Notes under the pieces: model-generated
The model's database searches: none
Told to the model about the DNA's origin: nothing
The model's input: only the letters and a program-made list of their open reading frames with translations
Part shown: one piece after another, positions 15,318 to 61,365 of the stretch
Numbering within the stretch: position 1 is the first letter of the stretch
Layout of the letters: each line of letters starts with the position of its first letter
Program-made: the position numbers and the translations under genes
NCBI GenBank assembly: GCA_964547875.1
Contig: CAZJPE010000002.1
Location: 42,130 to 106,129, forward strand
DNA length: 64,000 nt
Reading direction: 5' to 3'
Source: Candidatus Woesearchaeota archaeon
Lineage (GTDB): Archaea; Nanobdellota; Nanobdellia; Pacearchaeales; GW2011-AR1

Positions 15318-15474
15318 ATTAATTTAGGGATTTTTTATTAATATAAAAAGATTATTATGCTTAAATAGGCAGTATATCGAGAGCCTTAAAAGTTGGCTTA
15401 AGATAATAATTCCTTATGAGAGATATATTTTTAATTGCAATAAAGTTTAAATGCGATACTAATTGGCTTTTATT

Positions 15475-16050: not shown

Positions 16051-16051
16051 A

Positions 16052-30795: not shown

Positions 30796-30871
30796 CTTTT
30801 CTTTCGTTAAATTGCAATTTTAATTGAATATATAAATTTTGTGATGTTTAACTTGTTTAAAGAAGTATGCT

Positions 30872-32197: not shown

Positions 32198-32226
32198 GAT
32201 TATAATTAAATTATTTAGTTTATAAA

Positions 32227-33886: not shown

Positions 33887-33937
33887 TTTATTGACTTAAA
33901 ATCTACTTTTATAAGCATTTATGTAGTAAATTTTAAA

Positions 33938-35770: not shown

Positions 35771-35815
35771 CTTTTTTCTCCTTAATTTAGATATATGTTT
35801 TATTTAAATCTCTTT

Positions 35816-45344: not shown

Positions 45345-46265
45345 ATGAGAACTTTAGATTATGGCGTTATAGAAGGATTGTCTGAAAAATTTTCAAAGGA
45401 GGAAAATTTGTCGCTTTTCGAAAAAATGTGCTCAATACGGGCATTTGAATATAATGTAGCTGATGTTTTTGAGGCTGATTTTGAAAAAATGCCTGTTTAT
45501 TTATCAGTTGGAAGCGAGGCAGTTGCAGCTGCATTGGCCCTTTCTTATGGAAAGAAAAATCCTTCTATTTTTGCGCAGCATAGAGCTCATAGTTATTATA
45601 TTGCTTTCGGAGGCAATCTTGAGTCTCTTGTTGACGAGATGCTGCACAGACCAACAGGCTGCGCCTATGGAATGGGCGGCTCTGCTTCAATTCATTCTCC
45701 TGAAATTAAGATGCATGGGCATGACGGATTTATGGGAACACAGGTGCCCTTTGGAGTTGGCAGAATTTTTGCTGCCAATTATAGAGATAAAGAAAACAAA
45801 GAATATGGCTTGTGCATTATGGGAGATGCTTCTGTAGAAGAGGGCTATGTTTTTGGAGGTTTGGGATTTGCAGCACACAAAAATCATAAGATGCCTATTT
45901 TATTTGTATGCGAGGATAATAATCTCTCTGTTCTTACTAAAAAAGAAGTGAGAAGGAATTGGGAATGCTCTAATCTTGCAAAAAGCCTTGGCATGGAAAC
46001 AATTGAAATAGCAGATAATCCCTGGACAATCATGCATTATGCTAATGAACTTAAAAATAATCTGCCTGCGTTCATGAACATTCATTTAGTAAGGATTTTA
46101 AGACATGTAGGAAGCAAAAGTGATGGCTCTCCTGAATGGGACCGACTTGAGCTAACAAAACAGGAGCTTAAAAGAATAGGCTTGGGAATAGAAGCGGAAG
46201 AAATAGAAAGAAAGACAAAAAGATACACAGATAACTTATGGAAAAGAAAATTGGAGGAGTATTAA
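45345..46265 (+). CDS. TPP-dependent 2-oxoacid/acetoin dehydrogenase E1 alpha-like subunit
   Basis: 306 aa. TPP motif MGDASVEEG...CEDNN and E1 alpha-type VGSEAV / HRAH segments. Confidence 0.7.
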   Translation: MRTLDYGVIEGLSEKFSKEENLSLFEKMCSIRAFEYNVADVFEADFEKMPVYLSVGSEAVAAALALSYGKKNPSIFAQHRAHSYYIAFGGNLESLVDEMLHRPTGCAYGMGGSASIHSPEIKMHGHDGFMGTQVPFGVGRIFAANYRDKENKEYGLCIMGDASVEEGYVFGGLGFAAHKNHKMPILFVCEDNNLSVLTKKEVRRNWECSNLAKSLGMETIEIADNPWTIMHYANELKNNLPAFMNIHLVRILRHVGSKSDGSPEWDRLELTKQELKRIGLGIEAEEIERKTKRYTDNLWKRKLEEY

Positions 46266-47236
46266 ATGTAAAAATGACAGAGCAACTGCGTGAAACAATA
46301 AGAATAATATCTAGAAAACATTTGGAAGAGAATAACGGCTTATTATTAGGCCAATGCTTAACTGCAGTCGGGTGGGTTGGAAATACTATTCCTGAAATGC
46401 CTGAGAATAAGGGACTCGTAGAACTTTCAATGGATGACACATTTGCAGGATATTTTATATCTGGCATTGCTGCAGGAGACAAAGTCAGGCCTATTTATGT
46501 TGTTAGATATCAAGGCTTTCAATGGTTTAATGCAGTGGGCATTGTTAATTATGCTGCCAAGTCTAAGGAAATGTGGAAAATACCATGTCCTGTATTTGTA
46601 AGATCAATTGCAATGGAAGGAGGAGGCAGAAAAGGGAGAGACGAGAGAGCTATAGGACCTGTTGCTTCTGCAAGTCATCATGGAATATTTTACAGAATGC
46701 CTGGAATTCCGATTTGCGCGCCTGCAACTCCGAAAGAATACGAATCAATATGGAATCATTTTATGAATCATGACGATCCGCTTTATGTCAGCGAGCACAG
46801 AAGAGTTTGGGATGTTGATTATGAAATGCAAGATACATTGGAAAAAGATGCAGACATTACGCTATTTCCGATTTCTGCAACAAGATTAAATGCTCGCGAA
46901 GCTGTTGGAAGATTGGAAAAAGAAGCTGGAATTAAATGTAATGTAGTGAATTTGTTATGGCTAAAACCTCTTGATTTGAATAAAAAAGATGAAAAAATAG
47001 AATATTCCTTGAATAATTCAAGATGTGGGGGATTGGTCTTAGACGGAGATTACATAAACGGCGTTGCGAAAAATATAGCTTACGAGCTTATGCATAAATA
47101 CGAAAAGAAAATTTATGCGCTTGGTTTAGAAGAGAGAGCGTCTGGATTTGCGCCCTGGAATAATAATTTAGCGCCTACGCCTGATAGAATATATAGTTAT
47201 GTTAGATGGTTAGTTGGTAAGAATAAGAAGACATAG
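46238..47236 (+). CDS. E1 beta-like / transketolase-like Pyr-domain subunit
   Basis: 332 aa with pyrimidine-binding and C-terminal transketolase-like domains. An alternative start at 46274 would remove the overlap with E1 alpha. Confidence 0.65.
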   Translation: MEKKIGGVLNVKMTEQLRETIRIISRKHLEENNGLLLGQCLTAVGWVGNTIPEMPENKGLVELSMDDTFAGYFISGIAAGDKVRPIYVVRYQGFQWFNAVGIVNYAAKSKEMWKIPCPVFVRSIAMEGGGRKGRDERAIGPVASASHHGIFYRMPGIPICAPATPKEYESIWNHFMNHDDPLYVSEHRRVWDVDYEMQDTLEKDADITLFPISATRLNAREAVGRLEKEAGIKCNVVNLLWLKPLDLNKKDEKIEYSLNNSRCGGLVLDGDYINGVAKNIAYELMHKYEKKIYALGLEERASGFAPWNNNLAPTPDRIYSYVRWLVGKNKKT

Positions 47237-47282: not shown

Positions 47283-47813
47283 ATGAAGAAGGCGCTAATA
47301 TTGGCTGGAAAATTCGTGCAGGATCATGAATTTATTTATCCATATTACAGACTACAGGAAGAGGGCTTTAAAGTGACTGTTGCAAGTGAGGATGGGCAGG
47401 AAACAGTTGGAGCTGTTGGAATAAAAATTCCAGTAAACGAAAAAATTGAAAATATAAATCAAGAGGATTATGATTTGTTAGTTATCCCTGGAGGAGCAAA
47501 GGCAATGGAATATATGAGGCAGAATAAAAAGATCATTGATTTGATAAGCGGGTGGAATAAAAAGGGAAAGATAATTGCTGCAATTTGCCATGGAAGCCAA
47601 TTGCTTATTTCTGCAAAAGTAGTAAAGAATAGAAAATTAAGCGGATATTACAGTATAAAAGATGACATTAGCAATGCTGGGGCAGATTATGTGGATGCTC
47701 CGTTTGTTACAGATAAAAATATTATTACCTCGCCCCATTATAAGCATCTTGGGCCTTGGATGAAAGAAGTTTTTGGAGTGTATAAAAGAAAATATGGTGA
47801 TTTTAACAATTAA
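47283..47813 (+). CDS. DJ-1/PfpI family protein
   Basis: 176 aa with the AICHGSQLL nucleophile elbow. Confidence 0.85.
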   Translation: MKKALILAGKFVQDHEFIYPYYRLQEEGFKVTVASEDGQETVGAVGIKIPVNEKIENINQEDYDLLVIPGGAKAMEYMRQNKKIIDLISGWNKKGKIIAAICHGSQLLISAKVVKNRKLSGYYSIKDDISNAGADYVDAPFVTDKNIITSPHYKHLGPWMKEVFGVYKRKYGDFNN

Positions 47814-47832
47814 CAATTCGGAATTGGATAAT

Positions 47833-48555
47833 ATGAGATTATCAAACGTTTTAACGCCTATTGACACAACAATGAAGAATTTTGATTTTTCAAAGGTTAT
47901 TGTAAATAAACCATGGGGATATGAATATTTGGCATATGCAAACAAGAATATTGCTATCTGGATAATGTACATAAAGAAAAATTTCTGCAATTCCATGCAC
48001 TGCCATCTTGAGAAAAAAACTAATCTCATGCTGCTATCTGGAAAAGCTGTTTTTTCAACTCTTCAAGAAGGGCATGTGATAAAAGAGGGGGACATAATTG
48101 CCATAGATAAAAAATCCTTCCATTCCACTCAAGCTATTTCTGACGAAGGCATTTTTGTAATGGAGATTGAAAATCCTGTCAACAAAGTTGACTTATTGAG
48201 GCTGTCTGACGAATACGGCAGGGAAACAAAGGGCTATGAATCTAAAAATGAAATTTCACGCAATATAGACAGTTATAATGCTGTTTTCTTTGAGAATGAA
48301 GAATTTGATAAAGCAAAGAGAATCGGGAACATGGGCCTTTATTTCAAAAAATTTGAAGATGATAGAGAATTGATAGAGTACATGAACAGCAATAATGAAT
48401 CCATAAATGCTGTTGTTGAGGGGACAATTATCAGTGATATTTCTGGCGAGATGATTATGCCAGGGAAGTTTTTTTCAAATAATCATCCTGAAAATAAAAA
48501 TATAAAAATTCTAGAAAAGCCTTTAATTTTGCTTTCTATTTCAAGAAGAGATTAA
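47833..48555 (+). CDS. Cupin-domain protein (type II PMI / ManC C-terminal-like)
   Basis: KPWGYEYL...SMHCHLEKKTNLMLLSGKAVF. The ORF track starts at 47773 and overlaps the upstream gene; the ATG at 47833 is preferred. Confidence 0.55.
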   Translation: MRLSNVLTPIDTTMKNFDFSKVIVNKPWGYEYLAYANKNIAIWIMYIKKNFCNSMHCHLEKKTNLMLLSGKAVFSTLQEGHVIKEGDIIAIDKKSFHSTQAISDEGIFVMEIENPVNKVDLLRLSDEYGRETKGYESKNEISRNIDSYNAVFFENEEFDKAKRIGNMGLYFKKFEDDRELIEYMNSNNESINAVVEGTIISDISGEMIMPGKFFSNNHPENKNIKILEKPLILLSISRRD

Positions 48556-50591
48556 AATCTATTCTTTGAAATCCAGCTCTTTACTCCCTCTGATTCAAAT
48601 CTTACCTCCATTACCTCTGGAGAGCCTGCATTCTTCAACGCCCTTGCCAAATCATTTCTTTTTTTAGGGGAATGGAAGAATAAAAGATAGCCTCCATCTC
48701 CTGCTCCGAGAAGTCTCCCTCCATATGCGCCATTCTTTAATGCGCATTCGTATAATTTGTCCACGAAAGAATTTGAGATATTGTCGCTTAATTTTTTCTT
48801 GATTTCCCACGTTTCGCTCATTATTCTTCCAAATAATTCCAGCCTGCTGGTTAATAAGGCTTCTTTTATCTCCTCACTAAGTTCTTTCAAGCGAAATAGA
48901 GATTTTGTTTTTTCTGATTCGTCTTTCATGAAAAACGCCTCCTGCCTTTTATGAATATCTCCAGAATTGTGCGTGCGCCCTATATAACAAAGGAGCAGAT
49001 GATTCTCAAGCTCGTCAATTACTTCTTGCTTTAATTTCAATGGATAAACCAATGATTTGTCTTTTTCAAATTCTATGTAATTAAATCCTCCAACTGCAGA
49101 CGCATACTGATCCTGCCAGCCCCCTTTAATCTTCAGTTCTTCTCTTTCAACCTTATAAGCTAATTTTGCAATAGTATAATCGTCATGCTTATAATCCATT
49201 AACTGATCCAGCAGGCTTATTATCAGCACTGACAAGCTTGCTGACGAGCCTAATCCTCTTCCAGGAGGCACGTCACTTGCTACATATAATTCCAAGCCGA
49301 ATTCAGGATTCATTAGTTTTATTGCTGCCTTAATTAAGTCAAGCCTGCCGTCATAAACAAGCTCTTTAACAGAATTGGCAAGTATAATCCCTCCAAATTC
49401 CGAGTCAATAATTATTTTTTTATCTGCTCTTTTTATCAAGGTTGCGCTACAATATTTTTTAATTGTAGAATTTATGACACATCCCCCATATTTTTCAAAA
49501 AAATAAGGAATATCTGTTCCGCCGCCAGCGAAACTTATTCTTAATGGCACCCTGCCTCTTACAACAGGGAATTTTTCAGTTGTTATTTTCTCAATTCTAA
49601 ACTGCACATCCTTGACTCTCCCTTCATTATCTATAATTGGAAGATGATTGATGCCTGAAAATAATAATTCAGATATTCTTTCTTTTGTATCGTCGTGCTT
49701 TCCTGTAATTGGATCTCTGATCATGATAGATTTAACATCATCATCTATTTTTCCATTTCTTAAGATATGCTCCTTAATTATCCTATCATTGATAATGCCA
49801 ACGAGCTTTTCATTTTTATCTACAACCAAACCTAAATCTATTCCTGTTTTAGATATTTTCCTCATTATATCGCTTATTTTATTATGCTCTCTTACAAAAA
49901 GCCCTTTTATAATTCCCTCTTTAAATTCTTTGTAAGTTTCTGGCAAACCTATGTCAATAAAATAGCCTTCGTTTTTAAAGCACCATAATAAACCTTCTTT
50001 TGATAATTTGGGAAATATTTCCTTTTCCAAAGAGACATTTTTTTCAGGCTCTATATAATCAAAAATAATTGGCTCAAATAAATATGCTCCAACATTTATC
50101 AATCCCTTATTATTTTCTGCGCCTTTTTCTAAAAAGTCCAAAATTCTATCTCCGCTAATAGAAATTCTTCCGCCTCTGGAAGTATCTAGTACTTCTGTTG
50201 CCGCAATTGAGAACTTGCTTTTCTTTGTTTTATGAAATTCCAAAAATTTTTTTAAATCAATCTCAAAGTATGAATCTCCGTTTAATACCAAGAAGGTATC
50301 GTCAATATACCTCTCGGCTTTTTTTACTGCGCCTGCTGTTCCAAGAGGCACCTCTTCTTCAGAATATGTTATATTAACTCCCCATCTCTTTCCTTGACCA
50401 AAATAAGATTTTATTTTATCAGCCATATGGTGAACTGCGAGTATTAGTTCTTCTATACCCTGCTCTTTCAAAAATCTTATTTGATACTCTAAGAATGGCT
50501 TGCCTGCAATAGGAGCCATTGGCTTTGGCAAATCTGTGACTTCGGATCTTAAACGCGTTCCAAACCCGCCAGCTAGGATAACTGCCTTCAT
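48552..50591 (-). CDS. Fused sugar-1-P nucleotidyltransferase, CBS pair and GHMP kinase (HddC-CBS-HddA-like, Fkp-like order)
   Basis: 679 aa. N-terminus MKAVILAGGFGTRLRS (NTP_transferase), a mid CBS pair, and a C-terminal GHMP motif PPGRGLGSSASL. Confidence 0.8.
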   Translation of the reverse strand: MKAVILAGGFGTRLRSEVTDLPKPMAPIAGKPFLEYQIRFLKEQGIEELILAVHHMADKIKSYFGQGKRWGVNITYSEEEVPLGTAGAVKKAERYIDDTFLVLNGDSYFEIDLKKFLEFHKTKKSKFSIAATEVLDTSRGGRISISGDRILDFLEKGAENNKGLINVGAYLFEPIIFDYIEPEKNVSLEKEIFPKLSKEGLLWCFKNEGYFIDIGLPETYKEFKEGIIKGLFVREHNKISDIMRKISKTGIDLGLVVDKNEKLVGIINDRIIKEHILRNGKIDDDVKSIMIRDPITGKHDDTKERISELLFSGINHLPIIDNEGRVKDVQFRIEKITTEKFPVVRGRVPLRISFAGGGTDIPYFFEKYGGCVINSTIKKYCSATLIKRADKKIIIDSEFGGIILANSVKELVYDGRLDLIKAAIKLMNPEFGLELYVASDVPPGRGLGSSASLSVLIISLLDQLMDYKHDDYTIAKLAYKVEREELKIKGGWQDQYASAVGGFNYIEFEKDKSLVYPLKLKQEVIDELENHLLLCYIGRTHNSGDIHKRQEAFFMKDESEKTKSLFRLKELSEEIKEALLTSRLELFGRIMSETWEIKKKLSDNISNSFVDKLYECALKNGAYGGRLLGAGDGGYLLFFHSPKKRNDLARALKNAGSPEVMEVRFESEGVKSWISKNRF

Positions 50592-50662: not shown

Positions 50663-51250
50663 CTATACTTTATTCTTTAAGATTATATTTGCAACTGCGT
50701 CGTAAAGATCTGATGCATGAAACGATGGCTCTATATCAATTAGATTTTCATTGCCTTTGCCCCCATATCCTGTTTTCACAAGAATTGTTTTGCACCCTGC
50801 AGACTTACCTGCATAAATATCACTCATTTTATCTCCAATGATATAACATCCAGATAAATCTTTTATGTTAAAATCTTTTTGCGCTTGCAGAATCATTCCT
50901 GGTTTTGGCTTCCTGCATTCACATTCTTTAGTGTAGATTGGATTATTTCCCTTGGGATGATGGGGGCAAAAATATATTTTATCCAATTTCGCTCCTTTTT
51001 CGTTTAACAATTCTCTCATGTAATTATTTAAATTCTCCACGTCATTTTGTGTGCAAATTCCTTTTGCTATAGCGGATTGATTCGAGATAATTATTATTCT
51101 ATAATTATTTTTGTTTAATAATTTTATTGCGTCTATTGTTTTATCAATCAGCTTAAAATCTTCCCTTCTATGAAGATGAATCCTTTCTTCGCAAATAACG
51201 CCATCTCTATCAAGAAAAACTACTTTCTCCATTATTATTGCTTTTGTCAT
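50663..51250 (-). CDS. gmhB: D-glycero-D-manno-heptose 1,7-bisphosphate phosphatase
   Basis: FLDRDGVI, SNQSAIAKG, YFCPHHP...CECRKPKPGM, IGDKMSD and VKTG motifs match E. coli GmhB almost motif for motif. Confidence 0.88.
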   Translation of the reverse strand: MTKAIIMEKVVFLDRDGVICEERIHLHRREDFKLIDKTIDAIKLLNKNNYRIIIISNQSAIAKGICTQNDVENLNNYMRELLNEKGAKLDKIYFCPHHPKGNNPIYTKECECRKPKPGMILQAQKDFNIKDLSGCYIIGDKMSDIYAGKSAGCKTILVKTGYGGKGNENLIDIEPSFHASDLYDAVANIILKNKV

Positions 51251-51324: not shown

Positions 51325-52302
51325 ATGGCAAAATCTATGATAACTGGGATTGGTGGGTTTGTTGCTTCGCATTTGGCGAATTATTTGGTTGGGAAGAACG
51401 AAGAGGTTTATGGAACTTATCGCTGGACAGAAGACCTTTCAAGAATAGATAAAATAAAAGATAAAATAAAAATGATTCCTGCTGACTTATTAGATTTAAG
51501 CAGTTTAATAAGGGCAATTGCAGACAATTATCCAGATTATATTTTTCATTTGGCTGCACAGAGTTATGTTCCAGATTCATTTACAAATCCGATTGTAACT
51601 GTTGAAACTAATACTATAGGAACAATAAATCTGCTGGAAGCTATTAGAATAATAAAAGATTACATAAACAAAGACTATGATCCTGTGATTCACTTGTGCT
51701 CTAGCTCTGAATTCTATGGAAGAGTTGACGAGCAGGAAATTCCGATAACAGAAAAACATCCAATGAGGCCTGGAAATCAATATGCTATTGGTAAGATAGG
51801 GGCTGATGCTGCTGGATATTTTTACTATAAGTATTATGGCTTGAAAGTCATTAGAACGCGCATGTTCACACATACTGGCTATGGAAGGACAATGATGTCT
51901 GCAGAATGCAATTTTGCAAAACAAATTGCATTAATTGAAAAAGGCAAGCAAGAGCCTGTTATAAATCACGGGAATTTGAACTCTGTCAGAACCTGGGCTG
52001 ATGTAAGAGATGCTGTGAGAGCATATTATATTTTAGTTAGGAAAGGAAAACCTGGAGAAGTTTATAACATAGGCGGAAATACTGTAAAAACCATTGGCGA
52101 GGCTCTTGATTATTTAATCTCATTAAGTCCTATGAAAGACAAGATAAAAAAAGAGCTGGATACTAAGCTTGTGAGAAAAATGGATGTAAACTTGCAGATA
52201 GTAGACATATCAAAGTTCCAAAATGAAACAGGCTGGACTCCGGAAATTCCTTTTGAAGAAACTTTATCAGAAGTCTTGAGATATTGGAGAGAGCACGTTT
52301 AA
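51325..52302 (+). CDS. GDP-mannose 4,6-dehydratase-like (possibly GDP-manno-heptose 4,6-dehydratase)
   Basis: 325 aa. ITGIGGFVASHLA, AAQSYVPDSF...GTINLLEAIR, SSSEFYG, HGNLNSVRTWADVRDAV and a C-terminal GWTPEI track Gmd along its length. Confidence 0.75.
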   Translation: MAKSMITGIGGFVASHLANYLVGKNEEVYGTYRWTEDLSRIDKIKDKIKMIPADLLDLSSLIRAIADNYPDYIFHLAAQSYVPDSFTNPIVTVETNTIGTINLLEAIRIIKDYINKDYDPVIHLCSSSEFYGRVDEQEIPITEKHPMRPGNQYAIGKIGADAAGYFYYKYYGLKVIRTRMFTHTGYGRTMMSAECNFAKQIALIEKGKQEPVINHGNLNSVRTWADVRDAVRAYYILVRKGKPGEVYNIGGNTVKTIGEALDYLISLSPMKDKIKKELDTKLVRKMDVNLQIVDISKFQNETGWTPEIPFEETLSEVLRYWREHV

Positions 52303-52304
52303 TC

Positions 52305-52673
52305 TTATAGATAATATTTTAAATTATTTTTTTCTTCATTAACAAACTTTTCTTCCGTTACTCCAAGGATAATCGTGCCTTTCTTTGCATAAGCTTTATG
52401 ATATATTCGCGGAGGGATTCTTATTCTATCGCCTGGAGATAAAATAACGCTTTGTCTTTCTTCAGTATCTATGTTTGTTAATTCATACCTTAATTCTCCT
52501 CTGAACACATACCAAATCTCTCCATATTCATGAAAATGGCCTCCTAAAAGACAATCTGTTTTTGTTTCTAGTGTTAATAATTGGCGAGCAGTAAAATCTC
52601 CATTAAAAATCTGTCTTAAAGTTCTTCTCTCATCATCATGACCTTCTCTAACCTTTTCAGATTGTGTTATCAT
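52305..52673 (-). CDS. Small single-domain cupin
   Basis: 122 aa. GGHFHEYGEIWYVFRGE. Confidence 0.5.
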   Translation of the reverse strand: MITQSEKVREGHDDERRTLRQIFNGDFTARQLLTLETKTDCLLGGHFHEYGEIWYVFRGELRYELTNIDTEERQSVILSPGDRIRIPPRIYHKAYAKKGTIILGVTEEKFVNEEKNNLKYYL

Positions 52674-53044
52674 TTTATCTCAAATTTTAAATCGTCTATT
52701 TCTGGAGAGGTATATTTCTCTTCATTTCCCTCAATCATAATATTTCCTGCTTTTTGCAATGCTTTGTGCGCAATATTCCTATCAATTATTATCATGTCTC
52801 CTTCTTGAACTTTCTTGTCAATTCTTTCTCCAGTAGATATATTAACAAACGTATAATCTGCGTCTCCTTTCATCAGATAAAAAAATTGCCTGTAAGGATG
52901 ATAATGGTTTCCAAGAACAGCGTCTTCCTTAATTTTAAGCAATTTAACTTGTTTTGCTGTGAATCCTCCGTTAAATATCTCTATGAGCGCTCTTCTGTTA
53001 TCTTCATGAACTGGTTTAATCTTTGTATGATATAGGCCTTTCAT
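52670..53044 (-). CDS. Small single-domain cupin, tandem paralog
   Basis: 124 aa. GNHYHPYRQFFYLMKGD. 4-bp overlap with the downstream cupin. Confidence 0.5.
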   Translation of the reverse strand: MKGLYHTKIKPVHEDNRRALIEIFNGGFTAKQVKLLKIKEDAVLGNHYHPYRQFFYLMKGDADYTFVNISTGERIDKKVQEGDMIIIDRNIAHKALQKAGNIMIEGNEEKYTSPEIDDLKFEIK

Positions 53045-53159
53045 ATTGTTATTTTGATTTTATTTTTTAATCAAGTAAAACTTTATAAAATTATGTGAGA
53101 TGACATGTTTTCCACAAAAAACGGAAATATATAAAAAGTTATTTTATAGACTTTAGAAC

Positions 53160-54266
53160 ATGAAAAAAACAACTGTTGAGAAAAAAATTAATATTATATT
53201 CACAGGCCTATTTAGACAACAAGAATTGCTTAAGAAATCAATTGCCAATTTTATTAAGTTGCGAAAAGACAATCTTGTAGATAAGATAATTGTATCAACT
53301 TGGGACTACGAAGTCAAGAAAAATCCAAAAATGACTGATTTCTTAAAAAATAATGAGGTGATTGTTCTTGGCAGCAAAGAACCGAAAAAACGCGGTTTTG
53401 GAAATATAAACTGCCAGATGAAAGCGCTGGAAGCTGGACTTAGAGAGGTGAATAAAAAAAGCTTTGTATTAAAGACGAGAACAGACATATATATTGATCC
53501 ATTATTTTTAAAGGGATTATTCAAAAATAAAGAGAGAATATTGAGAATAAAATTAAATCTTCCCGACAATGTTTTTAGATACAAATTCTGGATTCCTTAT
53601 TTTGAGATAACAAAGCCGTTTTACTTAAGCGACGAGGCTTATTTTGGATATTATGAAGATCATAAAAAATTAATAAATTATAAACCTTATCACGATAGTT
53701 ATAATTTGCAGTCAGGGACTATTCACATGCAAAGGTGGTTTGAGCCGTTTTTATCAAAATATCCTGTTCTTAAGGACTTTATTGAGAATCATCCTCATGT
53801 TGGCTACCCTAAAGAAAATTTATTTTATAAAATTATTAAGAAAATTGCAAAACAAAACAGATTGACATTTAATTTGTTGAATTCTGTTACTGTCAGAAAC
53901 AGATTTAGGGTGCTAAAAAAACGCTTAGAGGATGAGAGATATGTTAATGTCCTTGCAGCCTATTATTCAATTTTATACAGCCATTTTTATATTAATGCAA
54001 AACCAGTAGACTATGCAATTAATAAGGAGGGTATTTTCAAAAGGGGCTCCCCATTTAATCCCAAAGTTAACAATCTAGATTTAATAAAAAATTATGTTAT
54101 GGAAAATGCAACTGGAAAAAGGCAGGGGCAGATTTACGCGTATAACGATGAGTTTCTTAAAAATATCTTTAATGGTAAGATAATAAAAGACGACTTTTCA
54201 ACAAGTTTGTTGGTTTCTATAGATAAGTTTTTTAATAGAAATCTTTTGGAGAAAAGAGTTAAATAA
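53160..54266 (+). CDS. Hypothetical protein (possibly a WavE-like polysaccharide synthesis protein; uncertain)
   Basis: 368 aa soluble protein. First gene of a plus-strand operon. Confidence 0.3.
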   Translation: MKKTTVEKKINIIFTGLFRQQELLKKSIANFIKLRKDNLVDKIIVSTWDYEVKKNPKMTDFLKNNEVIVLGSKEPKKRGFGNINCQMKALEAGLREVNKKSFVLKTRTDIYIDPLFLKGLFKNKERILRIKLNLPDNVFRYKFWIPYFEITKPFYLSDEAYFGYYEDHKKLINYKPYHDSYNLQSGTIHMQRWFEPFLSKYPVLKDFIENHPHVGYPKENLFYKIIKKIAKQNRLTFNLLNSVTVRNRFRVLKKRLEDERYVNVLAAYYSILYSHFYINAKPVDYAINKEGIFKRGSPFNPKVNNLDLIKNYVMENATGKRQGQIYAYNDEFLKNIFNGKIIKDDFSTSLLVSIDKFFNRNLLEKRVK

Positions 54267-54277
54267 AAGTTTATAAA

Positions 54278-55090
54278 TTGGACATTTTATATAAAAATAT
54301 GGATGGGAAAACTATTAAATGCGTCTCTATTGCTGAAAAACCGAGCTGTTTTGGAATTGAATTTCATAATAAAGGATATGAATTTTTTGGCTTAAATTAT
54401 GTTTATATTCCGCTTAAAGTAACCTCTAACAATCTTGAATCTACTATTCAACTTGTGAGGGAAAATTTCAAGGGATGCGGTGTTTCTATGCCTTATAAAA
54501 TAGAGGTTATAAAATACCTTGATGAGCTTGACGAATCTGCGGAAAAAGTTGGAGCTGTCAATACTATACTTAATAATGGACGATTAAAGGGATTTAATAC
54601 TGATTATTACGGGGCAAGAAGCGCGTTAAAAAATACACTAGAAATTGAAGGAAAAGATATTTTAATGATAGGGGCAGGAGGGGCTGCTCGTGCAATTGGA
54701 CATGCTGTAAAGGACTTGGATGGAAGGCTGTGGATTACAAACAGAACAGAGGCGAGGGCAAATGAATTGGCTTATATTTTGCGGGCTAAAACAATTCAAT
54801 GGCAAGAACGTAATTCATTTAATGCTTATTTGCTAATTAATGCCACAAGCATTGGCTTTAATAATATAAATGAATCTCCATTATTGAATGAATCTATTTC
54901 AAATTATGAGGCAGTGATGGATATTGTGCTTACAAGCGATGCTCAAAAAACCAGATTAATAAGAGAAGCAGAATCAAAGATGAAGATTGTAATTCCTGGA
55001 AGGACTATGACGATTTATCAGGCTGCAAAGCAATTTTATATCTATACGGAAAAGAAACTTCCAGAAGAATTTTTAAATAAATTTATATAG
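54278..55090 (+). CDS. Shikimate/quinate 5-dehydrogenase (AroE) family protein
   Basis: 270 aa. GAVNTI...GFNTDYYG and IGAGGAARAI Rossmann motif. Confidence 0.7.
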   Translation: MDILYKNMDGKTIKCVSIAEKPSCFGIEFHNKGYEFFGLNYVYIPLKVTSNNLESTIQLVRENFKGCGVSMPYKIEVIKYLDELDESAEKVGAVNTILNNGRLKGFNTDYYGARSALKNTLEIEGKDILMIGAGGAARAIGHAVKDLDGRLWITNRTEARANELAYILRAKTIQWQERNSFNAYLLINATSIGFNNINESPLLNESISNYEAVMDIVLTSDAQKTRLIREAESKMKIVIPGRTMTIYQAAKQFYIYTEKKLPEEFLNKFI

Positions 55091-55109
55091 ATTTATGCAG
55101 GAGAATTTT

Positions 55110-55805
55110 ATGGATTATAAAGTGTGTATTTTGGCTGCGGGAATAGGGAGTAGAATGCTTGAATTTACAAAAACCTTTAATAAGGTTTTACTTCCTATTC
55201 AAGGAAAGCCTGTTATTTGCCATATAATTGAAAAATTTCCTGAAAATATTGGGATTATTATAGCTGTTGGATACAAAAAAGAAGGAGTTATTGATTATTT
55301 GAAAACTGCTTATCCAAATAGAAAATTTAATTTTGTAAACGTGGGCAAATACGAAGGTGTTGGAACTGGCCCTGGATATTCTTTACTAAAATGCAAAGAA
55401 TATTTACAATGCCCATTTATTCAGTTTGCCGGGGATACATTAGTAAGGGAAGAAATTCCTTTCCCTAACAAAAACTGGTTTGGCGTTGCAGACGTTAAAA
55501 ATACTGAGAGATTTTGCTCTGTAAAGATTATGGGCGATAAAATAATAAGAATTGACGATAAAATAAAGAATGATAATAAACATGCTTTTATTGGCTTAGC
55601 TGGAATAAAGGATTATGACATTTTTTGGAGCGCATTGGAGAAAGATAAAAAATTTATTGCAGAGGAGTTACAAGTTTCTAATGGGTTTAGAGAACTGATA
55701 AATAAGGATTTACACTCTAAAAGATTTACATGGTTTGACACTGGAACATGGGAAGCTTATGATTATACGATAAAAAATTATCCAGATGGAGAATCTTATT
55801 CTTAG
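55110..55805 (+). CDS. Sugar-phosphate nucleotidyltransferase (LicC/MurU-like), short paralog
   Basis: MDYKVCILAAGIGSRM... Homologous along its whole length to the N-terminal half of 59037..60680, and the first 34 nt are identical. The ORF track starts at 55095. Confidence 0.7.
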   Translation: MDYKVCILAAGIGSRMLEFTKTFNKVLLPIQGKPVICHIIEKFPENIGIIIAVGYKKEGVIDYLKTAYPNRKFNFVNVGKYEGVGTGPGYSLLKCKEYLQCPFIQFAGDTLVREEIPFPNKNWFGVADVKNTERFCSVKIMGDKIIRIDDKIKNDNKHAFIGLAGIKDYDIFWSALEKDKKFIAEELQVSNGFRELINKDLHSKRFTWFDTGTWEAYDYTIKNYPDGESYS

Positions 55806-55859
55806 AGATTAAAGCATAAAAATATTTATAAACAATAATTGTAAATTTAATTAAATAAA

Positions 55860-56336
55860 ATGATAAAAAATTTTGTTTTGGACGTTGATGGCGTTATGAC
55901 GACAGGGCATTTTATTTATTCGGCAGAAGGAAAAGCGCTTAAGATTTTCGGACCTCATGACGCAGATGGATTGAAATTGCTCAAAGACAAATTGAACGTA
56001 TCTTTCATAACTGCTGACAAAAAAGGATTTGCCATATCAAAGAAGAGAATAGAAGACTTAGGTTTTCAAATTGAACTCATTTCTGAGCAAGACAGATATA
56101 ATTATGTCAAGGAAAAATTCGGATTTGAAAATACTGCATTCATGGGCGATGGAATCTTTGACGCTCAATTAATCAAGGATTGCAAATTTGGTATAGCTCC
56201 TGCAAATGCCAGGCCAGAGGCGAGAGAAGCAGCAGATTTTATTACGCCATCAAAATCTGCCGAAGGAGCAGTGTGCGATGCGTGCTTGGAGATAAAAAAG
56301 AGATTTTTAGATAAAGCAGAAGACAATAATGCTTAA
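55860..56336 (+). CDS. KdsC-family HAD phosphatase (sugar-acid phosphate phosphatase-like)
   Basis: 158 aa. LDVDGVMTTG, ITADKK and FMGDGIFDAQL fit the YrbI/KdsC subfamily. Confidence 0.75.
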   Translation: MIKNFVLDVDGVMTTGHFIYSAEGKALKIFGPHDADGLKLLKDKLNVSFITADKKGFAISKKRIEDLGFQIELISEQDRYNYVKEKFGFENTAFMGDGIFDAQLIKDCKFGIAPANARPEAREAADFITPSKSAEGAVCDACLEIKKRFLDKAEDNNA

Positions 56337-56348
56337 ATATACAAAATA

Positions 56349-57149
56349 ATGATTCTCGCAATGGAATTATCCTTAATAGACAAGACTGAAAGATATAGGT
56401 TTGAAAAAATAGAAAGAAATCCTGATTATTTCCATGAAAGAAAGGAATTTTCCACAGTAGATGAAATAAGAACTTTATTTTTGCATTATGGAAGTCTAGG
56501 AATTAATGTTGAATCAAATGGAAAGAAAAATATGTATGCTTTAAAAGCGGGCGAAGGTTTTATATTTGGACCGAATTTAAGATATAACTTATCCTGCGAT
56601 TCTAGGATTTTTGCAGTGCAATCTAGCTCTCAAATTGCAGAAGGTAAAATAATTGAGATTTTAGACAAAGGAGATGAAAAAGAGGAATCTGAATTGGGCC
56701 CGTTTAAGCTGGTTAGAAATCCAAAAAGAGTGAATAAACCTTGGGGGCATGAATTATGGATCAGCTGGTTTAGAGACTATCATGTTTTAAAGCAGATAGG
56801 CATGAAGGCAGGAAATATGTCAAGTTTGCAGCTACACGGACGCAAATTAGAAACTAATTATCTAGTTAAAGGGGAGGCAGACGTTATAGATGGCTATCCT
56901 ATGGATTTGAGCTTGAGCGAGGACGAGATGAAAAATAAAATAGGCGATGTTGATTTGTCTGAATATACTAACAGGAAAAAAGCAGGAATGCATTGGACTT
57001 CTCGTCCAGGAATTGTGCATAGAGTAATTTCTGTTGCAGATTATATTGCTTATGAGACATCAACGCCTGAATTAGATGATGTTATAAGACTTAGTGATGT
57101 TTCTGGAAGGCAGTCTGGAAGGATAGACTCAGAGCATAAATTGTCTTAG
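56349..57149 (+). CDS. Cupin-domain protein (type II PMI-like)
   Basis: 266 aa. NKPWGHELWIS...SSLQLHGRKLETNYLVKGEADV. Confidence 0.55.
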   Translation: MILAMELSLIDKTERYRFEKIERNPDYFHERKEFSTVDEIRTLFLHYGSLGINVESNGKKNMYALKAGEGFIFGPNLRYNLSCDSRIFAVQSSSQIAEGKIIEILDKGDEKEESELGPFKLVRNPKRVNKPWGHELWISWFRDYHVLKQIGMKAGNMSSLQLHGRKLETNYLVKGEADVIDGYPMDLSLSEDEMKNKIGDVDLSEYTNRKKAGMHWTSRPGIVHRVISVADYIAYETSTPELDDVIRLSDVSGRQSGRIDSEHKLS

Positions 57150-57181
57150 AAGAATACCATATAGGTAGAATGATAACGTAT

Positions 57182-57276
57182 GACATTTACAGAAGTCGCT
57201 CACCAAAATTGAAATTATAAAATAAGTGAGCGATTTGGGCTGAGGACTTGCAAAGTCCGAACCTGTAAATGTCTGT
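57182..57276. other. GC-elevated structured intergenic element with nested inverted repeats (candidate small RNA or mobile-element end)
   Basis: Outer stem gacatttacag / ctgtaaatgtc (11 bp), inner stem agtcgctcac / gtgagcga, and a local hairpin ggacttgcaaagtcc. I could not fold it as a tRNA. Confidence 0.25.
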
Positions 57277-57347
57277 TAAGTGATGTTTTCGTAAGAAAAA
57301 GTGCAATGTCACAAGCGAAGCGCAGAGTGCCTGCAACTATTATTTTC

Positions 57348-57361
57348 ATGGGTCGGCTCGC
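57348..57361. repeat. Left copy of a perfect 14-bp GC-rich inverted repeat (atgggtcggctcgc)
   Basis: The reverse complement, gcgagccgacccat, occurs at 58505..58518. Confidence 0.6.
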
Positions 57362-57884
57362 CCTTTTTATCAAAGAAAAGTTTAAAAGGTATCTTCTATA
57401 GGGAAAAATATGAAAAACGAAATATTACGTGGAGAATATAGAGAACCTTGGGTATTATAGTTATAATCATAAAATAGTTGATCCTGACTACCTTAAGATA
57501 AAGCAAAGAGGTATAAATGGAGAGATTGGTAAGCATCCTGATTTTAATTTTAAAAAATTTACCAAAAATCAACATAAAATGATTGAAGAAATTTTAAGAG
57601 AAATGCCAATAAGTCTGCAAGCAAAAGAGGTTGAAACTGGAAAAAGAAAGAGAAATGCAAGATAAACCAGTAGGATATGGAGAATCTTTTATTGTTAATG
57701 ATAGAACTTTTATTAACCCATATGGGAATGAAGTAGAAGTGTACTATCTAATGCTTAGTAGAAAAAGCTCCTTAGGAAATGATGTATTCAGAACTATTGA
57801 ATTGCATCTTGGTGTGCCACGCTCAGATTTTTTTGACTTCTAAATCACCAGAAACCTTAAATACTTACATTTCTTACAAGTAAT

Positions 57885-58145
57885 ATGCGAGAAGAAATAA
57901 GGGAAATAAGAACTGTGAAAATAACAAGAAAGGGACAGATAAGTATTCCCTCAGCGGTCAGAGCGAGAGCTGGTTTTGAAGAAGGCGCAAAGGTTAATGT
58001 TATTGCCTACGATGATAGAGTTGAATTAAGACCTATGAAAAAAGAAAAAATTAGTGAAGCTATGATGTGCTATATAATGTCAGAAGAAGCTTTAGCAAAA
58101 AATTGGGATACTCCAGAAGAGGATGAAGCATGGAAAGACTTGTGA
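57885..58145 (+). CDS. AbrB/MazE-family antitoxin (SpoVT_AbrB swapped-hairpin domain)
   Basis: 86 aa. KITRKGQISIPSAVRARAGFEEGAKV, with an acidic C-terminus. Overlaps the downstream toxin gene. Confidence 0.6.
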   Translation: MREEIREIRTVKITRKGQISIPSAVRARAGFEEGAKVNVIAYDDRVELRPMKKEKISEAMMCYIMSEEALAKNWDTPEEDEAWKDL

Positions 58146-58462
58146 AGGGAGATGTTGTTGTTTTAGACTTTCCATATACAGATTTATCAAAAACTAAAAA
58201 GAGACCAAGTCTTATTGTTGCTAATTTGAAAGGAGATAATATTATTCTTTGTCAAATTACTGGGCAACCAAGACCTGACCCTGATTTGATTAATCTGAAA
58301 AAAGAAGATTTCCAGACTGGTGGTTTGCATAGAGAGAGTTTTATAATGTCCTCTTTTTTATTTACGATTCACAAGTCAAAAATCAATTATGCGGCTGGAA
58401 AAATCAAGCAAGAAAAAATAGAAGAAGTTGAAAAGAAACTTTGTGAGATTTTTACAAGATAA
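58130..58462 (+). CDS. MazF/PemK-family toxin (endoribonuclease)
   Basis: 110 aa. GDVVVLDFPYTDLSKTKKRPSLIVAN...ILCQITGQ matches the MazF N-terminal signature. Confidence 0.65.
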   Translation: MERLVKGDVVVLDFPYTDLSKTKKRPSLIVANLKGDNIILCQITGQPRPDPDLINLKKEDFQTGGLHRESFIMSSFLFTIHKSKINYAAGKIKQEKIEEVEKKLCEIFTR

Positions 58463-58504
58463 GTTTCTTGCTGAAAGCGAAACTATTTGTGGCGTCAGCC
58501 ACTT

Positions 58505-58518
58505 GCGAGCCGACCCAT
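58505..58518. repeat. Right copy of the 14-bp inverted repeat (gcgagccgacccat)
   Basis: Perfect reverse complement of 57348..57361. 10 of 14 positions are G/C in a genome of about 30% GC. Confidence 0.6.
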
Positions 58519-58634
58519 ATTTATCCTTGTAGGTATTTCACTTAACTATGGTTAAGAATAAAAGGATAAAAAGAAAATGGCATTGATTATTTTGGTTAAT
58601 ATTATTAATAATCTTAATTTATGTTTTATATAAA

Positions 58635-58952
58635 TTACTTCAATAAAAATCTCTTCTTCCAATCAAATACGGTTTTTCTTGTTATTTTGACCTTAAAAGT
58701 ATGATTTAGATAAAGGGTTATATTGCCAAGACTGGTTTTCTTTTTCAATAACTCGAGAGCTGTTTTAATCATTGCTGGCGGATAACGGAATTTTTTAAAC
58801 ATTCCGGGAGTAAATCTTCTTTTACATTTCCTGCATTTATATATTTGTTTTATGGAATTAAGGTTTTTTCTTAGCTGTATAACATAAGTATCATTAGAGG
58901 CACAATAAAGGCAAGACATTAGATATTCTGATTGAATAGATAAATCTTTCAT
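58635..58952 (-). mobile_element. IS1 InsA-like / IS1595-like transposase N-terminal zinc-ribbon plus HTH ORF (probable IS remnant)
   Basis: 105 aa. CLYCASND...KQIYKCRKCKRRFT follows the CxxC-x(n)-QRYxCxxCxxxF InsA pattern, then an HTH. No catalytic transposase ORF lies next to it. Confidence 0.45.
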
Positions 58953-59036
58953 TATAATGAAAGACGAGAATTTTATTTAAATTTATCGTTAACTAAACAA
59001 AAATTTAAATAGTGTCCTCTTTTATTAATAAAAAAG

Positions 59037-60681: not shown

Positions 60682-61365
60682 ATGGCAATAGATAATGAAA
60701 GGCTATATGAGATGGCAGAATATGGCTTATTAAAGTTATATCTTCGAGAGAAGGAATCTGCATTAAAACATTTTCCTATTCATGAGGTTATGCAGGCGAC
60801 AGATATGATATGGGAAACTTATAAAAAAGGTGGAACAGTTTACGCCTGCGGAAATGGTGGCAATGCTGCTTCTGTCGGCAATCTAATTACAGATCTGGCT
60901 AATCACTTATTTGTTACAGATGACAAATCAAAACCTCTTCCAGAAAATATTCAGAGATTAAGGACTGTTGATTTATGCTCTTCTGGAGCAGCTCTTACTG
61001 CTTATTTAAATGACTTTGGAAAAGAATACGTGTTTTCACAACAACTTATCTGCAATAGGGTTGCAGAGGGAGATACTTTGTTTGGCTTTAGCGGAAGCGG
61101 AACATCAGGAAATATAAGAAAAGCATGTGAGATTGCAAAAAAACACGGCGCTAAAACAATTTTAGTGACGAGAAATAGGAATGCTGTATTGGAAGAACTT
61201 ATTGACTTAAGCATTGTTTTTGAGGGACATTCGCAATTTCCAGGACAAATAGGAAGCAATGACTTTAATTTCCATTATGAAGATCTTGGCTTTGCCATGG
61301 CTCACATGATTACAGGGCTATTGAGAAAGAGGATTTATGACGAACATAATAGAATCAAATCTTGA
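60682..61365 (+). CDS. gmhA: SIS-domain sedoheptulose-7-phosphate isomerase-like
   Basis: 227 aa. GGTVYACGNGGNAASVG and GDTLFGFSGSGTSGNIRKACEIAKKHGAKTILVT align with the GmhA motifs. There is an insertion in the middle relative to E. coli GmhA. Confidence 0.65.
   Translation: MAIDNERLYEMAEYGLLKLYLREKESALKHFPIHEVMQATDMIWETYKKGGTVYACGNGGNAASVGNLITDLANHLFVTDDKSKPLPENIQRLRTVDLCSSGAALTAYLNDFGKEYVFSQQLICNRVAEGDTLFGFSGSGTSGNIRKACEIAKKHGAKTILVTRNRNAVLEELIDLSIVFEGHSQFPGQIGSNDFNFHYEDLGFAMAHMITGLLRKRIYDEHNRIKS

Follow-up and report, generated by a model that had tools for sequence, protein, structure and literature searches.

We analysed a window of 64,000 nucleotides (nt) from a Candidatus Woesearchaeota archaeon (assembly GCA_964547875.1, contig CAZJPE010000002.1, positions 42,130 to 106,129), in which a gene for a short-chain dehydrogenase/reductase (SDR) of the extended type lies beside two small cupin genes; all coordinates below are those of the window. 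The SDR gene, named SDR325 after the 325 amino acids (aa) of its product, occupies positions 51325-52302 on the forward strand (PF16363, 228 bits), and the two single-barrel cupins, cupB (122 aa; 52305-52673; Cupin_2, 28.4 bits) and cupA (124 aa; 52670-53044; Cupin_2, 32.8 bits), are encoded on the reverse strand. In the raw sequence, cupA ends in ...AAA TGA and cupB starts with ATG A.., giving a 4-bp overlap (ATGA), and the stop codons of SDR325 (52300-52302) and cupB (52305-52307) converge at a distance of 2 bp. The layout described in the initial annotation, namely three genes with the two cupins downstream on the opposite strand and overlapping by 4 bp, therefore agrees with the sequence. 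The cupins are paralogues sharing 41% identity over 114 residues (E = 4e-31). Since orthologues of SDR325, cupA and cupB with 60-91% identity occur on many independent contigs from metagenomes and metagenome-assembled genomes (MAGs), all three are genuine genes and not chance open reading frames (ORFs). The divergent intergenic region between cupA and a conserved gene for a 368-aa protein (53045-53159) carries, about 40 nt upstream of the cupA ATG, an A/T-rich TTTATAAA element that is a possible archaeal TATA box.

The window is AT-rich (GC about 32%), and we regard it as an archaeal, DPANN-type glycosylation island carrying a unit for the modification of guanosine diphosphate (GDP)-heptose. 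It also encodes AglB/STT3, a GT4 initiating transferase, a flippase, many glycosyltransferases and several SDRs. The nearest relatives of the cupin and SDR genes were found on Woesearchaeota and Pacearchaeota MAG contigs, and remoter ones on one Elusimicrobiota contig and in one MAG labelled Methanosarcinales. Together with AglB/STT3, the nearest of these relatives are the grounds for the DPANN assignment.

The PF16363 match of SDR325 and a second one, to PF01370 (160 bits), both run over the full length of the protein. Its motifs comprise the N-terminal dinucleotide motif of the extended-SDR fold, TGIGGFVA (aa 7-14; G8xxG11xxA14), C125SSSEFYG132 with Ser127 and Glu129, Y153xxxK157, and T182HTGYGR188. 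Scores against the canonical Gmd model (TIGR01472; 127.4 bits, cut-off 415) and the RmlB equivalog (137 bits, cut-off 365) fall far under the cut-offs and therefore, as judged from sequence, SDR325 is not a canonical Gmd. The initial annotation had described a dehydratase tracking Gmd motif by motif; SDR325 does belong to the clade of GDP-sugar 4,6-dehydratases and Rmd, and the motif-by-motif likeness was overstated. In a search of PDB sequences, the best solved relative was 7US5, the GDP-manno-heptose 4,6-dehydratase of Campylobacter jejuni (E = 8e-71, 242 bits, 43% identity), which is also the nearest characterised relative of SDR325. The second was 2PK3, the Rmd reductase of Aneurinibacillus (E = 4e-63, 217 bits, 40% identity), followed by canonical Gmd structures whose E-values range from about 1e-34 (Aquifex, 2Z1M) through about 1e-28 (E. 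coli, 1DB3) to still weaker ones, with at most 121 bits. In the alignment with 7US5, CSSSEFYG (aa 125-132) of SDR325 is matched by CSSSEVYG, and YAIGK (aa 153-157) by YSISK; the reductase 2PK3 has Ser-Ser-Glu and YxxxK as well, so that these residues are necessary but not discriminating for a dehydratase.

A neighbour-joining (NJ) tree with 200 bootstraps was built from the SDR325 orthologues of ten loci and the window, together with 7US5, two Rmds, the Aquifex Gmd and RmlB, the sequences of DmhA and WcbK lying outside these comparisons. All the SDR325 orthologues and the window protein formed one clade (90% bootstrap) that was sister to 7US5 (82%), with both Rmds, the Aquifex Gmd and RmlB outside; a phylogeny had been proposed in the initial annotation as a means of placing the dehydratase, and it sets SDR325 beside 7US5, apart from the Aquifex Gmd and the Rmds. 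In the alignment, the motifs RW.E (after strand 2), YDPV.H.CSSSE.YG, TRM.TH(T/S)G.RR and SVRT were common only to the SDR325 clade and 7US5, the corresponding motifs of both Rmds being FNHIGPGQ and VRDF/SRDF. These data bear on the possibility that SDR325 is itself an Rmd-type C4 reductase, in which case the cupins and SDR325 would form a split CapF working on a 4-keto sugar supplied by another enzyme. Such a reading could draw on the rank and shared residues of 2PK3, and on CapF itself, in which a cupin epimerase is joined to an SDR reductase (PMC5393024). It is opposed by the grouping with 7US5, by TH(T/S)G.RR, RW.E and SVRT, in place of which the Rmds have other motifs, and by the presence of Fcl-like reductases already at hand. 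It would also require a second source of the 4-keto substrate, yet the other SDRs scanned in the window were Fcl-like (two), RmlD-like, GalE-like or classical, leaving SDR325 as the sole dehydratase type near the heptose genes, and in the compact operons of two other loci (L001 and L024), where no other dehydratase-type SDR was seen either, only SDR325 could make such a sugar. We consider a reductase role highly unlikely. Because of its sister position to 7US5, the motifs found only there, the catalytic residues and the lack of another dehydratase-type SDR nearby, SDR325 is very likely, on this sequence evidence, to be a 4,6-dehydratase of the DdahA/WcbK type.

SDR325 and 7US5 thus have in common a full-length match, the catalytic set and the motifs RW.E, TH(T/S)G.RR and SVRT, and the genes of both adjoin genes of GDP-heptose synthesis (PMC10680097). 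They differ in that SDR325 belongs to a separate clade, mainly archaeal and from candidate phyla, is devoid of the small insertions of 7US5, and has as partners another cupin family together with thiamine diphosphate (ThDP) and radical S-adenosylmethionine (SAM) enzymes. A separate observation concerns one orthologue on metagenome contig Ga0210057_1013321 (L023:3288-5279, forward strand), in which some 338 additional aa separate '...TRMFTH' from 'TGARRTMM...'. This insertion has Ser as its first residue and His-Asn at its end, with Thr as the next residue, and includes a LAGLIDADG-like 'LLYGLFVAEGDF'; it looks like a candidate intein in the TH(T/S)G.RR motif of a sugar-nucleotide dehydratase, and its location exactly in THTG would therefore mark THTG as a critical site of the enzyme.

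The neighbour of SDR325, divergently transcribed from it, is a gene for GmhB, the D-glycero-D-manno-heptose 1,7-bisphosphate phosphatase (50663-51250, reverse strand; TIGR00213, 153 bits, cut-off 149.6; PRK08942, 171 bits). Beside it on the same strand lies a fused HddC-CBS-HddA gene (48552-50591; Pfam NTP_transferase, CBS and GHMP_kinases_N/C), whose best NCBIfam matches are HddA (274.7 bits) and HddC (181 bits), both under their equivalog cut-offs. The heptose module that had been noticed next door is accordingly present, GmhB passing its model and HddC-CBS-HddA adjoining it. On the forward strand, a GmhA-like SIS protein (60682-61365; SIS_2, with gmhA the best NCBIfam match at 64 bits, under cut-off) and a transketolase (61337-63133; Transketolase_N, Transket_pyr and Transketolase_C) would, from their sequences, serve the supply and isomerisation of sedoheptulose-7-phosphate. 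Homologues of HddA, HddC, GmhB or GmhA were found within the fetched flanks of seven other loci (L005, L007, L022, L025, L031, L032 and L033), and an HddA-like kinase directly follows SDR325 in three of them (L031-L033). GT9 genes lie near the cupin/SDR325 module in L003 and L008, and the window itself encodes a GT9 heptosyltransferase-family glycosyltransferase (19173-20186, reverse strand; PF01075, 73 bits), a possible user of the heptose donor. A heptose substrate for SDR325 is thus supported by gene context, and the GDP-heptose that had been put forward as the likely substrate gains from both the identity of the nearest characterised relative and the heptose genes here and in the seven other loci. 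Two further genes, for a DJ-1/PfpI protein (47283-47813) and a 260-aa phosphomannose isomerase (PMI)-like cupin (47773-48555), sit between the E1-like pair described below and HddC-HddA, and both flank HddC-HddA in L007 as well.

The alternative is that GDP-mannose is the physiological substrate, with 6-deoxyhexoses of the D-rhamnose, 6-deoxytalose or fucose type as products and the heptose genes belonging to a separate branch. The Elusimicrobiota locus L001 fits it, with a cupin, a NUDIX gene and SDR325 and, within 10 kb, no heptose gene. NUDIX genes are typical of clusters for GDP-mannose-derived sugars, and both NUDIX genes and NUDIX fusions occur in the cupin family. The heptose epimerases and reductases of C. 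jejuni, moreover, take mannose-based substrates, if inefficiently (PMC7949155). Set against this are the heptose genes adjacent in the window and in the seven other loci, the HddA-like kinase that follows SDR325 in L031-L033, a closest characterised relative that is heptose-specific by name, and family scans of the window ORFs in which neither a mannose-1-phosphate guanylyltransferase nor a canonical Gmd was found. GDP-mannose as the substrate seems to us distinctly unlikely.

Turning to the cupins, the generic Cupin_2 was the only Pfam model above threshold for either protein. Family-invariant residues, in cupA numbering, include H13, D15, R17, R18, H47, H49, Y51, H93 and E108. The pocket residues are G45NHYH49 (nt 52898-52912), Q53 and H93 in cupA, and G44GHFH48, E52 and H92 in cupB, which displays the canonical cupin set H46xH48...E52...H92; the His pair and the third His are invariant across the family, Gln replacing Glu in cupA. 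Of the two paralogues cupA is the slow-evolving one, while cupB evolves faster and forms a monophyletic, old clade that is present in some loci only (the window, L003, L010, L015 and L022), always together with cupA. Neither cupin matched PF00908 or PF05523 at E < 0.01, TIGR01221 was likewise unmatched, and cupB reached 18 bits against the WbuC model (TIGR04366; cut-off 42). For cupA, the score against PF14667 was 28.5 bits, that is 0.2 short of the gathering cut-off (28.7), and precomputed tables flag this family on most cupA orthologues. Searches of PDB sequences with cupA or cupB singly, and with a 43-sequence cupA profile, yielded only generic, non-significant cupin matches.

Remote family members provide the link to known enzymes. 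A cupA profile search over 1.84 billion representatives collected about 610 family clusters, and a word-indexed search with cupB only 4 relatives. In the remote members the N-terminal D.RR.L becomes D.RG.L and LGNHYHP becomes RGNHYHK, and thresholds are exceeded for PF14667 (50-90 bits, over the whole 111-position profile), for PF05523 (up to 51 bits) and, in one case, for PF00908. The bridging sequence P0318 is 33% identical to cupA (E = 8e-14; against the cupA profile, E = 5.7e-10 among 1.8 billion proteins), scores 90 bits with PF14667 and 51 bits with PF05523, and matches the C-terminal cupin of Staphylococcus aureus CapF (residues 245-358) with E = 5e-11 and FdtA (2PA7) with E = 1.4e-4. 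Compared by hhalign, the cupA family gave E = 0.0031 (probability 10%) with the CapF cupin and E = 0.21 with FdtA; the comparisons of the cupA profile with FdtA/WlaRB and with an FdtA/RmlC-like 161-aa protein of the window were non-significant, with a consistent register. In the alignment with CapF, G45-N-H47-Y-H49 corresponds to G286-N-H288-W-H290, Gln53 (Glu in cupB) to Glu295, and His93 to the histidine of GYTH. Several papers give PF14667 (Polysacc_synt_C) as a Wzx flippase domain; we rejected the idea that the PF14667 match is spurious on this account, given that soluble cupins about 125 aa long cover the entire profile and that the top one among them aligns with the CapF cupin, and the family name is, on these sequences, misleading for annotation.

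AlphaFold (AF2) modelled each cupin with confidence as one jelly-roll barrel (pLDDT 96.7 for cupA and 92.0 for cupB). Foldseek comparison of these models with the PDB placed at the top, for both, the deoxythymidine diphosphate (dTDP)-sugar 3,4-ketoisomerases QdtA, FdtA, FdtD, WlaRA, WlaRB and HCAN_0198 (E = 1.6e-7 to 4e-7, TM-scores 0.75-0.85), which are of the same size as the cupins, with QdtA, FdtA and FdtD leading for cupA and WlaRA, QdtA and FdtA for cupB. The next ranks were taken by RmlC-type epimerases (RmlC, WbcA, ChmJ and StrM) and, for cupA, by CapF too. Three independent lines, namely the predicted fold, the gene context and the sequence bridges, thus point to nucleotide-sugar cupins. 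They belong to a family without a characterised or solved member, remotely related, as stand-alone proteins, to the CapF cupin, WbuC and FdtA.

The description of the cupins as RmlC-like had to be abandoned. They do not match PF00908, are about 60 aa shorter than RmlC, and have neither its catalytic Lys nor its C-terminal Asp segment; in non-significant alignments the register of the RmlC Lys is occupied by Gln or Glu, and the first His alone is conserved in register. That they are sugar enzymes, and not transcription factors, is upheld by the fold matches and by the sequence bridges to CapF and FdtA, and a role as transcription factors or dioxygenases was rejected on context, fusions and fold. 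One could still suppose that the cupins are unconnected to the sugar pathway, being, for instance, small dioxygenases that depend on a metal, or proteins for ligand binding or regulation that are neighbours by chance, since Cupin_2 alone exceeds the Pfam threshold and there are weak matches to 3-hydroxyanthranilate dioxygenase and acireductone dioxygenase (ARD) models. Against this stand the adjacency to SDR325 in 19 distinct loci, the fusions to NUDIX and GT2 domains, the order of fold matches (nucleotide-sugar cupins, then RmlC-type), the transitive sequence link to CapF and FdtA, and the absence of a DNA-binding domain from both cupA and cupB; this supposition we regard as extremely improbable. 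Several relatives are multidomain proteins: roughly 20 are bicupins with two domains per chain (P0189, P0193, P0194, P0202 and others), further ones are fused to a NUDIX hydrolase (three) or to GT2 glycosyltransferase domains (fusion entries P0198, P0212, P0294; P0192), and in L032:9632-10351 a PMI-like 'WG.E.W' cupin domain is N-terminally fused to a cupA-type domain.

In 19 distinct archaeal and bacterial loci, an SDR325 orthologue is found no more than 600 bp from a cupin gene. In 13 of these, the genes run in one direction as cupA-(cupB)-SDR325, and the stop codon of one often overlaps the start codon of the next. The other 6, the window and its close relatives, show the convergent arrangement, which is consistent with one inversion. 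Three loci with flanks long enough (L012, L020 and L028) were devoid of SDR325. The genes recurring beside the cupin/SDR325 pair are heptose genes, ThDP enzymes, B12 radical-SAM enzymes and Fcl-like reductases. No aminotransferase was found in any cupA-clade locus or among the window ORFs scanned.

These partners include candidates for the steps that follow the dehydratase. A search for a companion reductase, suggested by the initial annotation, yielded two Fcl-like (GDP-fucose-synthase-like) SDRs in the window, both on the reverse strand and both with GDPFucSynFcl as best NCBIfam match: a candidate C4 reductase at 38036-39022 (143.8 bits) and a candidate C4 reductase or epimerase-reductase at 32227-33174 (139.7 bits). 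Orthologues of the former lie directly downstream of SDR325 in L023 and L024, where the operon order is cupA-SDR325-Fcl-like SDR. On the forward strand, the window further encodes an E1-alpha-like ThDP protein (45345-46265), with an intact GDA...NN ThDP motif from aa 160, and an E1-beta-like one (46238-47236), the Pfam domains of the pair being E1_dh, Transket_pyr and Transketolase_C; the best solved relative in the comparison of this pair was the E1 alpha subunit of pyruvate dehydrogenase (PDH) (E = 1.5e-18), and the window showed no ORF big enough for an E2 or E3. In L005 the ThDP pair directly follows SDR325. In L022, a shortened E1-alpha-like protein (210 aa) and an E1-beta-like one (193 aa), at L022:3324-4539, form part of an operon ordered Fcl-like SDR - E1a - E1b - NUDIX - cupA - cupB - SDR325, and L023:732-2312 encodes a single fused protein of 526 aa that combines an Fcl-like SDR with a ThDP-binding E1_dh domain. 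This fusion and the shared operon in L022 therefore suggest a ThDP enzyme acting on a nucleotide sugar, and by analogy the pair at 45345-47236 is a candidate two-carbon branching enzyme on a keto-sugar. Other loci have operons in which radical-SAM genes enclose split transketolase-like genes; genes of the transketolase type could as well serve only to provide sedoheptulose-7-phosphate. Finally, a B12-binding radical-SAM enzyme of the KedN5-like C-methyltransferase type (35816-38002, reverse strand; Pfam B12-binding and Radical_SAM; NF033712, 231 bits) has orthologues adjoining cupA/SDR325 in L001, L003, L008 and L022.

Taking the dehydratase, its substrate and the cupins together, our preferred reading is that SDR325 is the dehydratase and the cupins are stand-alone epimerases of CapF type on GDP-6-deoxy-4-keto-heptose, feeding a more elaborate and possibly branched heptose; we give it a probability of roughly 50%. 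In such a scheme, SDR325, as an NAD(P)-dependent 4,6-dehydratase with Ser127, Glu129, Tyr153 and Lys157 as catalytic residues, would generate GDP-6-deoxy-4-keto-D-lyxo-heptose, an assignment drawn from homology, tree, motifs and context. The keto-sugar would then be bound by cupA, alone or as a cupA/cupB heterodimer, in a CapF-type pocket around His47, His49, Gln53 (Glu in cupB) and His93, probably with a divalent metal inside, where a proton alpha to the keto group would be taken to give an enediolate. C3 epimerisation and a 3,4-keto shift begin with the same abstraction of the C3 proton and the same enediolate, and differ in where the proton returns. That the cupins abstract the C3 proton next to the 4-keto group of the SDR325 product, through an enediolate, is to our mind likely; that they go on to act as epimerases we hold at about even odds. 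The most likely outcome would be C3 epimerisation, as in the CapF cupin domain, possibly with C5 epimerisation too by way of the second paralogue. RmlC, FdtA and CapF are dimers. On the strength of this and of the bicupin fusions in the family, it is plausible that cupA and cupB pair as a heterodimer or that there is a second specificity, for instance C5.

The epimerase reading is preferred because the sequence link to CapF is stronger than that to FdtA, because the SDR partners are Fcl-like, as are the C4 reductases of Campylobacter, and because no aminotransferase occurs in the clade. The competing view is that the cupins are GDP-sugar 3,4-ketoisomerases like FdtA, QdtA, WlaRA and WlaRB, which would move the keto group of GDP-6-deoxy-4-keto-heptose from C4 to C3 and so give a 3-keto sugar for reduction, for ThDP branching at C3 or, in sister clades, for amination. 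The fold comparison lends it weight, as 3,4-ketoisomerases make up the top 7 and 19 of the 27 top matches of cupA and the top 23 of cupB; RmlC-type epimerases, nevertheless, reach similar query-normalised TM-scores, so that the ranking is partly an effect of size. Likewise, H47/H49 are in register with H49/H51 of FdtA and DxRR with its DxRG, the cupins have an invariant His pair whereas RmlC needs the first His only, and the bridge P0318 passes PF05523 and matches FdtA; yet the link to CapF is the stronger on each measure (90 versus 51 bits, E = 5e-11 versus 1.4e-4, and 0.003 versus 0.21 by hhalign). The tandem cupins recall WlaRA and WlaRB, solved C. jejuni structures, and in a sister subclade (L034, L036 and L037) the cupin shows translational coupling to a DegT/DnrJ/EryC1 aminotransferase (413 bits), the classical companion of ketoisomerases, known from FdtA-FdtB and QdtA-QdtB. 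In the cupA-clade loci, by contrast, no aminotransferase is seen, and the partners are Fcl-like SDRs, of the C4-reductase type. To our knowledge, all characterised 3,4-ketoisomerases use dTDP-sugars. We regard ketoisomerisation as a real but somewhat unlikely possibility.

Several observations weigh against the scheme of dehydratase and CapF-type epimerases as a whole. The best fold matches of cupA and cupB are 3,4-ketoisomerases and not epimerases, and the aminotransferase coupling of the sister subclade points the same way. cupA stays under the PF14667 threshold and has Gln at the usual metal-cupin Glu position, cupB does not match PF14667, and the direct profile comparison with CapF is weak, the CapF link running through intermediate sequences. 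The identity of SDR325 to 7US5 is no higher than 43%, against 40% to the reductase 2PK3, and its tree is a small NJ one for which some of the PDB sequences were incomplete. The cupin genes of the window face SDR325 in convergent orientation and do not share a transcript with it. Lastly, the Elusimicrobiota locus L001 is without a heptose gene within 10 kb, and some SDR325 orthologues may therefore use GDP-mannose.

How far the proposed CapF-type epimerases resemble known systems can be judged from several sides. The C-terminal cupin of S. aureus CapF (Cap5F; 3ST7, 2ZKL and 4YRD; PF14667) and WbuC share with cupA and cupB a small jelly-roll, an N-terminal D.R(G/R).L arm and a GNH(W/Y)H...E/Q...H pocket. 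In CapF, His288 lines this pocket and His290 coordinates Zn, Zn2+ being essential for epimerisation (PMC5393024), and the enzyme performs C3 epimerisation of the 4-keto-6-deoxy nucleotide sugar delivered by the preceding dehydratase, followed by C4 reduction in its SDR domain (PMC3699295). In contrast, cupA and cupB, at 122-124 aa, stand alone, unfused to an SDR reductase, the nucleotide is presumably GDP and not uridine diphosphate (UDP), the sugar would be a heptose and not an N-acetylhexosamine, and cupA has Gln for the Glu of the motif. FdtA, QdtA, FdtD, WlaRA and WlaRB (PF05523) resemble the cupins in giving the best folds, in size, in His-x-His register and in the occurrence of tandem paralogues in one cluster, and differ in the lack of a significant direct sequence match, in the lack of an aminotransferase partner in the cupA clade and in their use of dTDP-sugars.

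The 6-deoxyheptose pathways characterised in Campylobacter, Yersinia and Burkholderia all employ RmlC-family epimerases (PMC10680097, PMC7949155). With such C3/C5 epimerases (DdahB, MlghB and Cj1430; PF00908), the cupins have in common the fold, the pathway slot after a heptose dehydratase and before an Fcl-like reductase, and an N-terminal Arg-containing arm that probably binds the diphosphate (PMC7949155). Unlike them, they are about 60 residues shorter, lack the equivalents of Lys74 and of the C-terminal Asp173 segment of the His-Asp dyad, which, with a Tyr, complete the catalytic set of these proteins of about 180 aa (residue set from PMC7949155), and have as second invariant His a residue that is Gln in RmlC. 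The cupins therefore look like a non-orthologous replacement of the RmlC-family DdahB/MlghB, and the dehydratase/cupin/reductase trio of L023 and L024 recalls DdahA/B/C (PMC10680097). While the kind of dehydratase is already known, a cupin family of this sort in the RmlC pathway position would be new.

The later steps can be sketched from conserved neighbours only: the epimerised keto-sugar may be reduced by the Fcl-like SDRs and/or two-carbon-branched by the E1-like ThDP pair, C-methyl groups may come from the B12 radical-SAM enzymes, and the sugar would finally be moved to a surface glycan. Stand-alone PDH-E1-like ThDP pairs beside a nucleotide-sugar 4,6-dehydratase, without E2 or E3, are also found for avilamycin (AviB1/AviB2) and paulomycin (Pau11/Pau12), their proposed role being to add a pyruvate-derived acetyl branch to a keto-sugar (PMC4753412). 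The likeness to them is one of domain type and context, and they differ in that some of the related loci have ThDP genes that are shortened, SDR-fused or replaced by split transketolase-like genes. In place of the plain 6-deoxyheptose that had been envisaged, the ThDP E1-like pair and the B12 radical-SAM enzymes of the conserved neighbourhood suggest a product that is more than this and, by analogy, may be a branched and possibly C-methylated heptose.

Other genes of the window form groups of their own. A run of tailoring genes on the reverse strand (28288-38002), parts of which recur by the heptose genes in L007, includes the KedN5-like enzyme and the Fcl-like SDR at 32227-33174. Its other members are a dioxygenase of the PhyH type (28288-29142), a radical-SAM enzyme resembling HemN (29401-30795), two more B12-binding radical-SAM enzymes (30872-32197 and 33938-35770) and a classical SDR (33167-33886). 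A separate deoxysugar module (13883-17101) includes the above-mentioned FdtA/RmlC-like 161-aa cupin (13883-14368; PF00908, 52 bits; PF05523, 46 bits), RmlD (14445-15317, reverse strand), a genuine RmlC (15463-16050; PF00908, 209 bits) that passes the rmlC equivalog (TIGR01221, 219 bits), and a GalE-like SDR (16052-17101); a dehydratase of the RmlB type was not seen in the window. On the other flank of cupA, a second conserved nucleotide-sugar-like module spans 53160-60680, and the same genes lie by cupA in six other loci (L006, L007, L013, L014, L016 and L017). It begins with the conserved 368-aa protein, which has no family match, and continues with a shikimate-dehydrogenase-like protein (54278-55090), a nucleotidyltransferase (55095-55805), a KdsC-like phosphatase of the haloacid dehalogenase (HAD) family (55860-56336), a PMI-like cupin (56349-57149) and a nucleotidyltransferase-kinase fusion (59037-60680). 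By sequence reading, two small overlapping ORFs within this span (57885-58145 and 58130-58462) resemble an AbrB/MazE-type antitoxin and a MazF/PemK-type toxin, and a Cys-rich 105-aa ORF on the opposite strand (58635-58952) has a transposase-related look. A gene for QueC, the 7-cyano-7-deazaguanine synthase (21792-22508; PF06508, 165 bits), lies among the glycosyltransferase genes.

Our literature search retrieved no paper on heptose pathways in DPANN archaea. In its boldest form, which we put forward as speculative and rather unlikely, the cupA/cupB-SDR325 module would be the entry to a widespread, undescribed pathway of DPANN archaea, Elusimicrobiota and other groundwater lineages, in which a cupA/cupB heterodimer epimerises or keto-shifts the sugar, a ThDP enzyme branches it and radical-SAM enzymes C-methylate it, so that a branched higher-carbon sugar, new to glycans, is displayed on the archaeal surface. 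The cupin family itself is the fixed partner of the probable heptose dehydratase across many uncultured lineages, with only a remote link to CapF and FdtA. If our reading is true, it would represent a third stand-alone family of nucleotide-sugar cupins and would extend CapF-type metal-dependent epimerisation, or ketoisomerisation, to GDP-heptoses. The recurrent association with ThDP and B12 radical-SAM enzymes is a pointer to new branched sugars and to enzymes for glycoengineering. DPANN archaea depend on contact with host cells, and these genes would, if the reading holds, offer a concrete handle on their surface glycans.

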